In this document: positions 51,666 through 58,515 of the stretch, one piece after another
Layout: each line of letters opens with the position of its first letter
Position numbering within the stretch: the first letter of the stretch is position 1
Source of the DNA: Patescibacteria group bacterium
Lineage (GTDB): Bacteria; Patescibacteriota; Patescibacteriia; UBA1558; GWA2-36-10
Assembly (NCBI GenBank): GCA_018819405.1
Contig: JAHJQF010000001.1
Span: 665,676-729,675 of the forward strand
Reading direction: 5' to 3'
DNA: 64,000 nucleotides
Notes under the pieces: model-generated
The model's database searches: none
What the model saw: only the letters and a program-made list of their open reading frames with translations
Told to the model about the DNA's origin: nothing
Translations under genes and position numbers: made by a program

Positions 51666-52112
51666 GTGCATAATATGGATAATTTTAACAAATTTTTACA
51701 TTCAGGGGAAGAGCTAGTAACGATAGTTAGGTCAAAATCAGCCTCATACAATATTTTTTTAACTATTAGCCTTATTTTATTAGCTTTTTTTATGTTATTT
51801 CCTATGTGGAAAGTAGGTAGGCAGGGATTTTGGCTATGGATTTTTTTAGTATTTTTTTTGATTTATTTATTAATCACACAAATTTTAAACAAGGAAAGTC
51901 TGTATTTAATCACTAACCGGCGTATAATCCACCTAAAAATATATACTAAAGATGATTACAAATCTGCTGGCTCGGTAAAAATAAATCAAATAGAAAATAT
52001 AAAAAAACAAAATAATACTATACAAATTTTTATAAACAACAAAAAATATTACCTTACTAACATTGAAAAAGCTGACAAGGTATATAATTTTATAAAGTCC
52101 AAAATTTTATAG
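51666..52112 (+). CDS. Small membrane protein with a bacterial PH-like (bPH_2/YdbT-like) domain.
   Basis: Two transmembrane helices are followed by LYLITNRRIIHLKIY. Confidence 0.4.
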   Translation: MHNMDNFNKFLHSGEELVTIVRSKSASYNIFLTISLILLAFFMLFPMWKVGRQGFWLWIFLVFFLIYLLITQILNKESLYLITNRRIIHLKIYTKDDYKSAGSVKINQIENIKKQNNTIQIFINNKKYYLTNIEKADKVYNFIKSKIL

Positions 52113-52148: not shown

Positions 52149-52622
52149 ATGCCAGAAGTTTTGGAACCAAAGATATTGAAAGTTGAAAAAATGCCGGCTC
52201 CGGAAACATCTCCAGAGCAAATTTCTAGTTCTGAAAAAAATTCGGAAAAAATGCCGACTTTGGATAAAGAAAGCCAACAAGTATCAGAAATTTCTTTGCC
52301 ACAAACTCCAACAAACCAGGCCATAGTATCAGATGATGAAATGGTTTTGCAAAAAGTGGAAAATATTTTATCAGCAAATATGGATAAAGTATTTTTGTCA
52401 CTAGATATTTCTATGCAGACTAGATTTAAAATCAAAGGTGAAGAAACGGCCAAAAAAATATCTGGACTTTTAAGAAATACCAGTGTCAAAACAAAAGATA
52501 TCTTATCCCTTATACTTGAATGGTTACGTATTGTCCCTAAAATTAATAAGCATTTTTTGGAGCAAGAAGCAAAAATAAAAACTGATAATATATTAAAACT
52601 TCATAAAGAAAAACAAAATTAA
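52149..52622 (+). CDS. Hypothetical acidic protein, 157 aa.
   Basis: An ORF directly upstream of the VirB4-like ATPase. No family was recognised. Confidence 0.35.
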   Translation: MPEVLEPKILKVEKMPAPETSPEQISSSEKNSEKMPTLDKESQQVSEISLPQTPTNQAIVSDDEMVLQKVENILSANMDKVFLSLDISMQTRFKIKGEETAKKISGLLRNTSVKTKDILSLILEWLRIVPKINKHFLEQEAKIKTDNILKLHKEKQN

Positions 52623-52625
52623 ATC

Positions 52626-55097
52626 ATGCTAGATTACATTGTTATAGGGTTTATAATATTATTTTTCTTAACCGTAATAACTATTCTATTACGCTGGCTT
52701 TACATACGTTGGGGTGACAAAAGTAACAAAGGAGTATCCTTTGTTGTTTTACGTATAAAGGTTCCCCAATATTCTACTCAAGAAAAAGACAAAGAAAATA
52801 AGGAATATATCCAAAATAGTTTAGGTCAAATTGAAAATTTTTTTACAGTGCTAAGTGGCTTAAAGGCTCAGCGCAAAATAAGACGAACTGATTTATTTTC
52901 TATAGAGCTGGTCTCAGATAGTGGTATTATAAATATATATGCTGCTATGCCACCATCTTTAAAGGATTTTTTTGTGGAACACTTGCAATCTGTCTACCCA
53001 CATATACATTATGAAGAAGTGAGTGATTATAATATATTTCAGCCAAATGGCGTGATACTTGCCGGATCTCTTCGTTTTGCTAGGGATTATAGTCTACCTA
53101 TTAGGACTTACCGTAAGTTTGAAAATGACCCAATGGAGTCAATTACTAATGCTTTGAGTAAGCTAAATGAAAATGAAGGCGCGGCAATTCAATATGTTTT
53201 CCGTTCGTCTAAGTCAAAATGGCATTCTCGTGGCCGAAAAATAGCTCAGCATATGCACCGGGGCTTGACTTATAATGAGGCTTTGAAAAAAGCGGGGGGA
53301 GGGGGAGGATTTTTTAATACTAGCGCCAAAATTTTTGGTTTTTTTATAGATTTCTTTACAACTCGTGATCCTAATAAAGAAAAAGAAAAAACACCAGAAC
53401 CACAGCCATTATCTGCTATGGAGCAAGAAAGAGCCAAAGGTATGGAAGAAAAAACTGCCAAATCAGGTTTGGATGTCAATATTCGGATGGTTGTTTCTAC
53501 ACCATCTAAGGAAAGATCTACAGCCATTCTTTCAGATATAATGAATAGTTTTTCCCAATACAATATATATGAATTTGGTAATAGTTTCAAAATTTTTTTA
53601 CCGAGAAATATTGATACTTATGTAGAACATTTTATATACAGACATTTTGTTCCTCAAAACAGTATGCTTCTCAATTCTGAAGAAATGACCAGCGTTGTCC
53701 ACTTACCTATACCTGGCACTCATACTCCAAACATTGATTGGTTAGGAGCAGTGGAAGCTGCCCCACCAACCAATATGCCTACTGAGGGTATTATTTTAGG
53801 TTTAAATACTTATCGTGGTAAAAAGACTGTAGTGCGTATAAAAGATGAGGATAGGCGTCGTCATATGTATGAGATTGGTCAAACGGGCACTGGTAAATCC
53901 GTATTTTTAGAAAGTCTAGTTATTCAGGATATAGAAGCTGGCAGAGGCGTTTGTGTCTTAGATCCACACGGCGACCTAGTAGAAAAAGTCTTGGCCCATA
54001 TTCCAAAAGAAAGAGCTGAAGATGTAATTCTTTTTGATCCCTCTGATGTTGGTAGACCAATGGGTATGAATATGTTGGAATTTGAGACTGAAGAACAAAA
54101 AAGTTTTGTGATCAATGAAATGATTGCTATTTTTGATAAATTATATGATCTCAAAGCAACAGGTGGGCCTATGTTTGAGCAGTATATGAGAAATGCCATG
54201 TTGCTTATTATGGAAGACAAAGAATCCGGGGCAACACTTTTAGAAATCCCCAAAGTTTTATCGGATAGTTTATATAGGAAACAAAAATTAGAAAAAGTAA
54301 AAAACTATTTAGTTCGTGATTTTTGGGAAAAAGAAGCCCAAAAAGCTGGTGGTGAAGCATCACTTGCCAATATGGTACCTTATATCACCAGTAAGCTGAC
54401 ACCTTTTCTTTCCAACGACCTTATTCGTCCTATTGTTTCTCAGGAAAAGAGCGCTTTCAATTTCAGAAAAGCCATGGATGAAGATAAGATTATTTTGGTC
54501 AACCTGTCTAAAGGTAAGATTGGTGATATGAATAGTAGTTTGCTGGGTATGATTGTGATTGGTAAAATACTATATGCTGCTTTGAGCAGAGTAGACATGC
54601 CAGAAGACCAACGAAAAGATTTTTATCTTTATATTGATGAGTTTCAAAATTATATTACCGATAGTATTTCTGTAATTTTATCAGAAGCTAGAAAATATAA
54701 ATTAAATCTTATTTTGGCTCATCAATTTTTGGCTCAGTTGGTCAAAAATAATGATACCCGAATCAAGGATGCTGTGTTTGGAAATGTAGGCACTATAATT
54801 TCCTATAGGATAGGTGTAGATGATGCTGAGGTAATAGCCAAACAAATGGCTCCAGTTGTATCAGAATATGATCTGTTAAACATGCCCAAGTATACCTGTT
54901 ATGTAAAACTTTTGATAGATAATCAAAATCCACCAGCTTTCAATTTTATGCCTGTTTTACCTGAAAAAGGAAATTATGAATTAGCCAAAACAATCAAAGA
55001 GTTGTCTCGCTTAAAGTATGGTAGAGATAAACAAGTAGTGGAAAATGAGATCAGAATACGTTCAAATATTGTAGCTGATCCACCAAAAGTGGCCTAA
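52626..55097 (+). CDS. Membrane-anchored VirB4/TraC/HerA-class P-loop ATPase (type IV secretion-like).
   Basis: An N-terminal transmembrane segment and a domain of about 400 aa are followed by Walker A YEIGQTGTGKSVFLE, then VCVLDPHGDLVE (the D-x-G-D/E motif typical of VirB4/HerA). Walker B is FYLYIDEFQNYI. The C-terminus has LNLILAHQFLAQL. Length is 823 aa. Confidence 0.5.
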   Translation: MLDYIVIGFIILFFLTVITILLRWLYIRWGDKSNKGVSFVVLRIKVPQYSTQEKDKENKEYIQNSLGQIENFFTVLSGLKAQRKIRRTDLFSIELVSDSGIINIYAAMPPSLKDFFVEHLQSVYPHIHYEEVSDYNIFQPNGVILAGSLRFARDYSLPIRTYRKFENDPMESITNALSKLNENEGAAIQYVFRSSKSKWHSRGRKIAQHMHRGLTYNEALKKAGGGGGFFNTSAKIFGFFIDFFTTRDPNKEKEKTPEPQPLSAMEQERAKGMEEKTAKSGLDVNIRMVVSTPSKERSTAILSDIMNSFSQYNIYEFGNSFKIFLPRNIDTYVEHFIYRHFVPQNSMLLNSEEMTSVVHLPIPGTHTPNIDWLGAVEAAPPTNMPTEGIILGLNTYRGKKTVVRIKDEDRRRHMYEIGQTGTGKSVFLESLVIQDIEAGRGVCVLDPHGDLVEKVLAHIPKERAEDVILFDPSDVGRPMGMNMLEFETEEQKSFVINEMIAIFDKLYDLKATGGPMFEQYMRNAMLLIMEDKESGATLLEIPKVLSDSLYRKQKLEKVKNYLVRDFWEKEAQKAGGEASLANMVPYITSKLTPFLSNDLIRPIVSQEKSAFNFRKAMDEDKIILVNLSKGKIGDMNSSLLGMIVIGKILYAALSRVDMPEDQRKDFYLYIDEFQNYITDSISVILSEARKYKLNLILAHQFLAQLVKNNDTRIKDAVFGNVGTIISYRIGVDDAEVIAKQMAPVVSEYDLLNMPKYTCYVKLLIDNQNPPAFNFMPVLPEKGNYELAKTIKELSRLKYGRDKQVVENEIRIRSNIVADPPKVA

Positions 55098-55179
55098 TTT
55101 ATCTACATTGCCAAGAGGTATAATTTATGATAAATTTATAGGGCAAATAAGTTTGCAAAAGCGATAAATAAAAACAAAA

Positions 55180-55764
55180 ATGGCAAACACAAAAAAAATC
55201 AAAGATTTAGAAGCTTTGGTATATAATCTAGAATTGGAACTCAAAAAAACCAAACAAGTTTTGGGTGAGCTGAGCGGAAAAAGCGGCCGAGAGTCAATTG
55301 ATTATTCATTACGGGCGGCTGAACTAGGCAGTGAAAAAGACACTGATAATGGTTTGATTATTGAAGGAGTTTTCAACGGGCAGATAATGATTGGTCCAGA
55401 TGGCAAACAATATAGTGTGCCAGCCAATTATGCTTCAAAATCCAAGTTAGTTGAAGGAGATATACTAAAACTTACTATAATAAACGACGGTTCTTTTATT
55501 TTCAAACAAATATCGCCAGTGGAAAGAAGGCGAATGGTTGGCCATTTGATCAAAGACAAAAAAACCAATGATTTTGTGGTATTGTCTGGAGACAAGATTT
55601 ATAAAGTATTAATGGCTTCCGTTACTTATTTCAAAGGTGAAGAAGGTGATGAAGTGGTTATTTTGGCGCCCAAGGACTCTGATAGTAACTGGGCGGCTGT
55701 GGAAAATATAGTCAAAAATAATAATACAACAACTTCTACTGACGATTTCGAACTTAGTTTGTAA
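55180..55764 (+). CDS. Hypothetical protein with an N-terminal coiled coil, 194 aa.
   Basis: An ORF lying between the ATPase and dnaX. No family was recognised. Confidence 0.4.
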   Translation: MANTKKIKDLEALVYNLELELKKTKQVLGELSGKSGRESIDYSLRAAELGSEKDTDNGLIIEGVFNGQIMIGPDGKQYSVPANYASKSKLVEGDILKLTIINDGSFIFKQISPVERRRMVGHLIKDKKTNDFVVLSGDKIYKVLMASVTYFKGEEGDEVVILAPKDSDSNWAAVENIVKNNNTTTSTDDFELSL

Positions 55765-55771
55765 CTTAATT

Positions 55772-57268
55772 ATGTCTGAAGTAATTTATAGAAAGTACCG
55801 ACCTAAAACTTTCAAAGAGGTCGTTGGTCAGAAGCCGATAAAAATTACCCTAGAAAATGAAATAGTAAGTGGGCATATTGCCCACGCTTATTTATTTGTC
55901 GGACCTCGTGGCACTGGTAAAACAACTTTAGCTAGATTGTTTGCCCGTTCTTTAAATTGTTTAAATAGGCCAAACAAAGAAGCTGAGCCCTGTAATGAAT
56001 GTCAAATCTGCCAACTTATACTATCTGGGCAAAGTATGGATATTATAGAAATAGACGCGGCTTCTCACACCGGTGTTGATAATGTACGAGAAAATATTAT
56101 TGCCAATTCTCAGGTGCCTCCCTTTAACAATAAAGGTTTTAAAGTTTTTATTATCGATGAGGTGCATATGCTTTCCAAGTCAGCCTTTAATGCGCTATTA
56201 AAAACTTTGGAAGAGCCGCCAAAAAACGTAATTTTTATATTGGCAACTACAGAAATACATAAAGTACCAGAGACTATTATATCTCGTTGTCAGCGTTTTG
56301 ATTTTAAAAAAATTCCCCTAAAAGATATTGTCAAGAGAATGTCAGAAATTATAGAATGGGAAAAAGTCAGTGTATCTGATAATGTATTGGGTCAGATTGC
56401 TAGACGTAGTGAAGGATGTTTACGTGATGCCGAATCTCTTTTGGGGCAAGTTATTTCTATTAGCTCAGGAGAAGTTACTGATGAGATGGCTTCATTGGTA
56501 TTACCACGCAGCAATTGGCATGAAGTAGATGCTCTAGTAGAATCACTAAGAATGAATAATTTGTCTACCGCTCTCAATCAACTAAACAAATTAGTGGATG
56601 AGGGGATAGACCTAGCTACATTTACCAGTGATCTTATAGATTATCTCCGACAGATTATGCTTTATCAAATTATCGGGCCTAGCTATAATCTTGATTTTGA
56701 TGATAATTTAAGTACTGCCATAAAAAAACACGCCCAAGAATTTCCTTTGGAAAGTCTATCAAAACTATTAGATATACTACTGCGTAGATTGGCAATTAAA
56801 GATTCTGTTATAGATCAACTTCCTCTAGAGTTGGCTTGTGTGGAATTTTTATTGGATAAAGAAATAGAAAATACAGATGTCAAAAAAGATGAAAAACCAA
56901 ATCAGTTGCCAAAAAAAATCGCTTCTGGAAATGACATAAAAGATATACAATCTCTATGGTCACAAGTTGTAGAAAGTACCAAAGAACTAAATCATTCTAT
57001 TTCTACTGTTTTGATAACCAGCCACCCTTTGACAATTGAGCAAAATTCTATTATTATCGGTCTTGAATATAGTTTCCATAAAGAACAACTAGATAAACCC
57101 ATGGTAAAAAACCATTTAGCTAAGGTATTTGAAGATATATTCGACAAAAAATTCTCAATTGGCTTTGAGATAGATAATAATTATAAAGAAAATCACCAGA
57201 ATTTTAAGGGTAAAAATGAAAATGGAGTAGGTGAGGCGCTAGATACTTTTGGTGGCGAGCTACTTTAA
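55772..57268 (+). CDS. dnaX: DNA polymerase III subunit gamma/tau.
   Basis: YRKYRPKTFKEVVGQKPI..HAYLFVGPRGTGKTTLARLFA and the zinc module CNECQIC match the clamp-loader ATPase. IIDEVHMLSKSAFNALLKTLEEPP is also present. Confidence 0.9.
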   Translation: MSEVIYRKYRPKTFKEVVGQKPIKITLENEIVSGHIAHAYLFVGPRGTGKTTLARLFARSLNCLNRPNKEAEPCNECQICQLILSGQSMDIIEIDAASHTGVDNVRENIIANSQVPPFNNKGFKVFIIDEVHMLSKSAFNALLKTLEEPPKNVIFILATTEIHKVPETIISRCQRFDFKKIPLKDIVKRMSEIIEWEKVSVSDNVLGQIARRSEGCLRDAESLLGQVISISSGEVTDEMASLVLPRSNWHEVDALVESLRMNNLSTALNQLNKLVDEGIDLATFTSDLIDYLRQIMLYQIIGPSYNLDFDDNLSTAIKKHAQEFPLESLSKLLDILLRRLAIKDSVIDQLPLELACVEFLLDKEIENTDVKKDEKPNQLPKKIASGNDIKDIQSLWSQVVESTKELNHSISTVLITSHPLTIEQNSIIIGLEYSFHKEQLDKPMVKNHLAKVFEDIFDKKFSIGFEIDNNYKENHQNFKGKNENGVGEALDTFGGELL

Positions 57269-57278
57269 ATTAATATGT

Positions 57279-57352
57279 TCGGGGATCGTCTAATGGTAGG
57301 ACAACGGGTTCTGGTCCCGTCAATTGGGGTTCGAGTCCCTATCCCCGAGCCA
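57279..57352 (+). tRNA. tRNA-Gln (anticodon CUG), with CCA encoded. It lies 10 nt after the dnaX stop.
   Basis: It has the same cloverleaf as 13760-13833 with 4 substitutions. The anticodon loop is ttCTGgt. The U1-A72 pair, the G73 discriminator and CCA are present. Confidence 0.9.
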
Positions 57353-57445
57353 AGCGAACAAAGTGAGCGCGGGCTCGGGTTAAAAAAATCCGAGTCGGAG
57401 ACGATGTTCCTAAGATGCTGTGCAATGGCACAGCGCCCCGAGCCA
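57353..57445 (+). other. Second copy of the conserved tRNA-Gln 3' trailer module (ends GCCCCGAGCCA). It is followed by the hairpin tgaaccgttacggttca, a third CCGAGCCA occurrence and a terminator-like hairpin.
   Basis: It is about 89% identical to 13834-13926. Both hairpin stems are conserved, and the substitutions fall in the loops. Confidence 0.5.
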
Positions 57446-57611
57446 TGAACCGTTACGGTTCATAGCCGAGCCAGCTAGAAAAAGACGAATATTGTTTCGC
57501 CTTTTTTGTTTATTAAAAAACGAGTAGGGACTCGAACGGGCAGAAGTGAGATTATAGTATTTTTAATATATTTATGCTAATATATAAGCAGATAAAAATT
57601 AATCTAAAACC

Positions 57612-57989
57612 ATGAAAAAAATACTATTATTACTTTTGCTGTTTGCGCCAAAATTAGCTAGTGCTTCTACGCCACCCTCAGACCCTTCAGACCCTTGGGG
57701 CATCAATGACTTTTCCAAAACTAATATTGCCTTGGGCAGTAAACCACTACGTGAGACAATTGGTGGGGTCGTCAATATTGCTTTAGGATTTTTAGGAATT
57801 TTGACTACTTTACTTATCCTGTGGGGCGGCTTTAAATGGATGACTTCTGCTGGTAACTCTGAGCAGGTTGATCAGGCCAAAAGAATTATTAGTGCCGGTG
57901 TCATTGGATTGATTATTGTATTGAGTGCTTATGCTATTTCAAGATATGTCTTGATAGAATTACGTAAAGAAACTGTTGAAGGTGTATAA
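57612..57989 (+). CDS. Small secreted membrane protein with a signal peptide and two hydrophobic helices. A VirB2/TrbC-like pilin is one reading; this is uncertain.
   Basis: The sequence is MKKILLLLLLFAPKLASAS.. followed by two hydrophobic helices (VVNIALGFLGILTTLLILWGGF and SAGVIGLIIVLSAYAISRYVLI) separated by a short polar loop. Confidence 0.4.
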   Translation: MKKILLLLLLFAPKLASASTPPSDPSDPWGINDFSKTNIALGSKPLRETIGGVVNIALGFLGILTTLLILWGGFKWMTSAGNSEQVDQAKRIISAGVIGLIIVLSAYAISRYVLIELRKETVEGV

Positions 57990-58028
57990 AATAAAAATTT
58001 AATTTAATAAAATTAATAAACTCTTATT

Positions 58029-58375
58029 ATGAAAAAATTTTCATACTAGGGTTATTATTTCTGCCATCTACAGCTTTAGCAGTTGACCGATGGGGCATCA
58101 ATGACTTTTCCTAAACTAATATTGCTTTGGGCAGTAAACCACTACGTGAGACAATTGGTGGGGTCGTCAATATTGCTTTGGGTTTTTTAGGCATCTTAGC
58201 CACATTACTTATTTTATGGGGCGGTTTTAAATGGATGACTTCTCAAGGTAACTCTGAGCAGGTTGATCAGGCCAAAAAAATTATTGGCGCCGGTGTGGTA
58301 GGATTAGTTATTATCCTAACTGCATATGCAATTTCAAGATTCGTATTGCAATCCTTGTACAACGAGACTATCTAG
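58029..58375 (+). pseudogene. Tandem paralog of the pilin-like gene, disrupted by a frameshift after the ATG and a Lys-to-TAA nonsense change. The mature-region coding is intact from TTG 58127.
   Basis: 58088-58260 is about 93% identical to 57693-57865. ccaaaacta has become cctaaacta, giving a stop. The signal-peptide frame (KIFILGLLFLPSTALAVDRWGINDFS) is offset from the ATG. Confidence 0.45.
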
Positions 58376-58515
58376 CTATAAGCATTTATGTGCAAGCTGC
58401 TTATTTTTACCTTTTAGGCTTTAGAGTAATAATTTATTTATTCAAACACCATCCCTATAGGGATGGTGTTTATTATTAGTTACCAAATTTATGATTTTAC
58501 GCTATACTATAGTAT

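Follow-up and report, generated by a model that had tools for sequence, protein, structure and literature searches.

A T4SS-related membrane ATPase and a VirB2-like pilin pair, one copy disrupted, as probable accidental neighbours on a Patescibacteria chromosome

Do a membrane-anchored ATPase and a pair of small pilin genes that lie 2.5 kb apart (ATPase stop to start of the first pilin) belong to one secretion apparatus? An earlier note on this DNA, which placed the genes at that distance, called the ATPase VirB4-like and read the locus as a possible dispersed type IV secretion system (T4SS) module. We examined the locus within the 64-kb stretch that contains it (the window) and in related species. 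The explanation that we favour, and that we consider likely when its ATPase part and its pilin part are judged jointly, is that these are two separate kinds of T4SS-related genes of Patescibacteria (CPR bacteria), neighbouring by local accident and forming no conserved unit. Both gene families are already known from Patescibacteria, from papers of 2023-2025. The organism is indeed a CPR bacterium, one of the ultra-small bacteria, and the locus is chromosomal, amid housekeeping genes, in agreement with the view that it is not on an obvious mobile element. The order on the + strand is ATPase, 194-aa gene, dnaX, tRNA-Gln(CTG) and pilin pair, with the following features:

51666-52112, + strand: upstream neighbour of 148 aa, transmembrane helices at aa 30-48 and 56-74; kept in close relatives only
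52149-52622, + strand: 157-aa soluble protein, conserved ATPase partner; stop 3 nt 5' of the ATPase start
52626-55097, + strand: the ATPase, membrane-anchored, 823 aa; Patescibacteria 'T4CP-like' family (NCBI MBU1203111.1)
52716-53780, + strand: ATPase N-terminal domain, aa 31-385, Pfam DUF8128 (PF26449; precomputed annotation), predicted VirB4-N-terminal-like fold
53877-53900, + strand: Walker A GQTGTGKS, aa 418-425
54630-54647, + strand: Walker B region YIDEFQ, aa 669-674
55180-55764, + strand: 194-aa protein between ATPase and dnaX
55772-57268, + strand: dnaX (DNA polymerase III gamma/tau; Pfam)
57279-57352, + strand: tRNA-Gln(CTG), where the conserved block gives way to the variable pilin slot
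57612-57989, + strand: pilin copy 1, intact VirB2-like T4SS pilin, 125 aa (MBU1203114.1 'pilin'; PF18895)
57696-57886, + strand: segment of copy 1 apparently homogenised, through gene conversion, with 58091-58281 of copy 2
58029-58375, + strand: pilin copy 2, disrupted; its ortholog is intact and encodes a 115-aa pilin
58127-58375, + strand: residual ORF of copy 2, 82 aa, TTG start (MBU1203115.1 'pilin')
58444-58471, + strand: perfect hairpin with a 14-bp stem, 3' of copy 2

The ATPase reading frame and its motifs GQTGTGKS, VLDPHGD (aa 444-450) and YIDEFQ are as originally described. A single strongly hydrophobic N-terminal helix (aa 4-22; residues 2-30 in the predicted model) is followed by DUF8128 and then by a TrwB/VirD4-type NTPase with a helical insertion. 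The key residues of these motifs do not vary across 36 homologs; in Walker A they are G418, G421, G423 and K424, and in Walker B the stretch Y669-Q674. Pfam matches are to T4SS-DNA_transf, TrwB_AAD_bind and TraG-D_C, with scores (PF02534, 35.6 bits; PF10412, 32.1; PF01935, 28.2; PF12696, 22.9) that each exceed the cut-off. Families of type IV coupling proteins (T4CPs) reach 32-42 bits, as compared with 16.6 bits for the VirB4 model TIGR00929 (cut-off 643), and the profile search gave no match to PF03135 (VirB4); the protein also scores far under every NCBIfam T4CP equivalog cut-off. Its PDB profile and sequence matches are TrwB and DotL only, and its NCBI name is 'type IV secretion system DNA-binding domain-containing protein'. 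At the level of sequence profiles it thus groups with the VirD4/TrwB coupling proteins and not with VirB4, so that the family check proposed earlier came out on the VirD4/TrwB side and the 'VirB4-like' label does not hold at this level.

The label does find some footing in predicted structure. In Foldseek searches of the PDB with an AF2 model of the DUF8128 domain (pLDDT 83.7, pTM 0.82), all 14 matches at E<1e-3 were TrwK/VirB4 chains (E 2e-6 to 4e-4), and the fold is accordingly predicted to resemble the VirB4 N-terminal domain, a call made from a predicted model against one solved protein (TrwK) at a TM of just 0.40-0.44. The full-length model aligns with TrwK over ~930 columns and both domains (E 1e-15). 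The C-terminal part is modelled as a RecA-type motor that carries an all-helical insertion; in these models the motor domain is equidistant from TrwB and VirB4. Together, the invariant Walker motifs, the RecA-type motor, the membrane helix and DUF8128 make it most likely that the protein belongs to the VirB4/VirD4 clade and is a hexameric NTPase, active and bound to the membrane.

Compared with known systems, the ATPase shares with TrwB (plasmid R388) and DotL a Walker A/B motor with an inserted all-helical domain, but identity to them is only 15-17% and, unlike theirs, its context contains no relaxase or oriT. TrwB has two N-terminal transmembrane helices and then the motor, whereas the ATPase has one such helix and an extra domain of ~355 aa. 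In its two-domain plan and length of ~800 aa it resembles VirB4 (TrwK of R388; Thermoanaerobacter VirB4 CTD, 4ag5), whose profiles nevertheless fail on it. VirB3 and VirB6 neighbours are missing here: profile searches of the 64-kb window, which cover the flanks that the earlier note proposed to search, found neither of them nor any further T4SS component. Closer counterparts are the Patescibacteria VirD4-like T4CPs (Quinonero-Coronel et al. 2025, Microb Genom, PMC12102498), which have the phylum and the HMM-level T4CP/VirD4 assignment in common with the ATPase and are likewise chromosomal, usually far from virB4 and in relaxase-free surroundings. That paper counted 5,713 of them, roughly two for each genome, in 2,918 of the 3,035 Patescibacteria genomes, and just 148 were near virB4; our ATPase evidently belongs to this set. 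The genome studied here is absent from two supplementary files of the paper, whose relevant passages do not mention DUF8128, its VirB4-like fold or the 157-aa/dnaX/tRNA-Gln neighbourhood. A Saccharibacteria T4CP homolog, not necessarily an ortholog of the DUF8128 ATPase, was dispensable for epibiotic growth (PMC12102498). We found 4989 ATPase homologs, with full-length identities of 50-82% and from several Patescibacteria lineages, and 3527 DUF8128 cluster representatives; the gene is near-universal in Patescibacteria.

Gene order was surveyed in 80 related species, with denominators that vary by neighbour (66, 76 or 80 loci). The 157-aa gene lies directly 5' of the ATPase in 65 of 76 loci, and in L003 and L004 it overlaps or abuts the ATPase start; its 809 homologs are all unnamed Patescibacteria proteins, and none carries a Pfam domain. 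On the 3' side, the 194-aa gene, whose product has zero Pfam, NCBIfam or PDB matches, is present in 46/66 loci and dnaX, on the same strand, in 58/66, while the tRNA-Gln follows dnaX in L001 and L003-L007. These genes form a conserved string: 157-aa protein, ATPase, 194-aa protein, dnaX, tRNA-Gln. The 148-aa gene, whose product matches no family over cut-off in profile searches, was found by tblastn only at loci with an ATPase identity of at least 64%. A pilin gene lies within 6 kb of the ATPase in only 4 of the 80 species. The dispersed T4SS module is therefore only partly supported: both of its parts are T4SS-related, the ATPase by the Pfam T4CP families and the small proteins by PF18895 and, weakly, TrbC, but they are rarely found together.

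How, then, should the ATPase be read? It could be the VirB4-type motor that drives assembly in a minimal pilus apparatus and has the adjacent pilins as its direct substrates, the whole forming one dispersed module. The DUF8128 fold, which matches VirB4/TrwK only, and the full-length alignment to TrwK agree with this, as do the shared strand, the short distance and the recurrence of the arrangement in the nearest relatives (L001, L002, L007, L011, L013). We nonetheless regard it as unlikely, given the failing VirB4 profiles, the missing VirB3 and VirB6, the intervening dnaX and tRNA gene, and the rarity of a nearby pilin as against the 86-88% of loci that keep dnaX and the 157-aa gene; moreover, Patescibacteria own a separate canonical VirB4, usually beside pilin genes (PMC12102498). 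A different proposal is that the protein was exapted from secretion as a membrane-tethered nucleic-acid or chromosome motor (an FtsK/HerA-like role) working with the replication machinery. This would explain why the ATPase is locked to dnaX, and it suits a family that is commoner than virB4 (~96% of Patescibacteria genomes) and seldom lies near it; exaptation is raised by the authors of PMC12102498 themselves. However, conservation of gene order is not function, the dnaX-tRNA-Gln region may be merely a stable neighbourhood, and the VirB4-like N-terminal domain and membrane anchor suggest an envelope machine, so that this proposal, too, seems improbable to us. Least credible, and very improbable indeed, is an anti-phage defence component (MADS mad8-like or a HerA-type ATPase): the PADLOC mad8 match (50.5 bits, aa 389-760) is confined to the shared P-loop motor, no defence genes adjoin, and a phylum-wide single-locus core gene with fixed housekeeping neighbours is unlike a defence island. 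Under the favoured explanation of two separate gene kinds, the ATPase would energise or gate a Patescibacteria T4SS-like apparatus in trans (acting in trans is our assumption), with pilin, protein or DNA as candidate substrates.

The pilin assignment is clear from the profiles: copy 1 scores 44.2 bits and copy 2 43.4 bits against PF18895 (cut-off 26.6), values that speak against chance, and both match TrbC weakly, which bears out the TrbC/VirB2 relationship expected for the 125-aa protein. As anticipated for secreted small proteins with two hydrophobic helices, copy 1 has a signal-like N-terminal segment and helices at aa 52-70 and 92-115; in each pilin a signal peptide is followed by a membrane hairpin of two helices. 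If VirB2/TraA are a guide, the pilin would be exported through Sec and cleaved, would await polymerisation in the membrane, and would build a conjugative-type pilus for host contact. The slot just 3' of the tRNA-Gln is variable, with 3, 3, 1, 2, 1 or 0 PF18895 VirB2-like pilin genes across relatives; the third copy of the closest relative is absent here, and the ortholog of copy 1 is the first pilin of L001 (p1, 78% aa identity). No terminator was found between the copies, and since the hairpin at 58444-58471 is the sole terminator-like site of the pair, they probably share one transcript.

VirB2-like pilin arrays, essential ones among them, have precedents in Patescibacteria (PMC10633639; PMC12102498, in its relevant passages; PMC12857230). 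With VirB2/TrbC pilins and arrays such as the T4SS locus of Southlakia epibionticum SEML1 (Wang et al. 2023, PMC10633639), the pair shares the signal peptide and two-helix hairpin, PF18895, tandem paralogs and a monoderm host organism. Published Patescibacteria arrays lie mostly beside virB4, with members 25% identical on average and 54% at most (PMC12102498), whereas the pair here, one of them a pseudogene, stands apart from any T4SS gene and is 86% identical over 264 nt (57690-57953 vs 58085-58348), a likeness presumably due to gene conversion. Within NCBIfam, both copies match best, along the entire 80-position model, to the pilin-like conjugal transfer protein of the Mycoplasma ICE Mbov_0395 (NF045849; 36.4 and 39.3 bits, just under the curated cut-off of 40). 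The ICE context is missing here.

Copy 2 carries two lesions, known from assemblies, as originally described. Its ATG at 58029 is followed by A6 (58032-58037), where copy 1 has ATG and A7; this 1-nt deletion, in a homopolymer, leads the ATG frame to TAG after 6 codons. In the pilin frame a TAA, at 58112-58114 and not at 58108-58110 as first given (4 nt off), aligns with AAA (Lys) in copy 1 and CAT (His) in the ortholog; the frame is otherwise open up to 58375, so the mature region does remain coding. Against the intact 115-aa ortholog (p2 of L001), copy 2 has 6 aa differences in 95, with dN 0.048, dS about 2 (saturated) and dN/dS about 0.02. The two copies are 90.6% identical over 191 nt (173/191) and 95.7% over 94 nt (90/94, the first tract), against 78% between their two orthologs in L001, and the earlier figure of ~93% over some 170 nt was a fair one. 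Shared derived sites number 16/124 inside the conversion tracts vs 2/104 outside, in a comparison with effectively one outgroup genome, L001 and L002 being near-identical. These values point to a history of strong purifying selection and of sequence exchange with copy 1 by gene conversion, and hence to a recent inactivation. Because the TAA lies inside a conversion tract where copy 1 reads AAA, the exchange would have preceded the nonsense mutation.

Could copy 2 nevertheless be alive, whether because its lesions are assembly errors, because the TTG at 58127 yields an 82-aa leaderless pilin, or because it is a silent donor cassette for copy 1? Its 249-nt ORF is intact, spans the entire PF18895 domain and is called by NCBI and, in a separate 847-kb contig, by JGI; the low dN/dS, the past exchange and the lack of an intervening terminator fit as well. 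We consider this quite unlikely, however: two independent lesions sever the signal peptide, a low dN/dS with saturated dS requires just a recent inactivation, and the older conversion gives no sign of ongoing donation. The sequence is identical in a MEGAHIT short-read assembly, which lowers the probability of a homopolymer error and, still more, that of a wrong base at the TAA. Of the two fates suggested earlier for the pair, pseudogenisation thus agrees with the disrupted copy 2; phase-variable expression is unlikely, since both lesions would have to revert. Loss of copy 2 may be tolerated because a second pilin array elsewhere in the genome holds four genes, among them a copy-2-like paralog.

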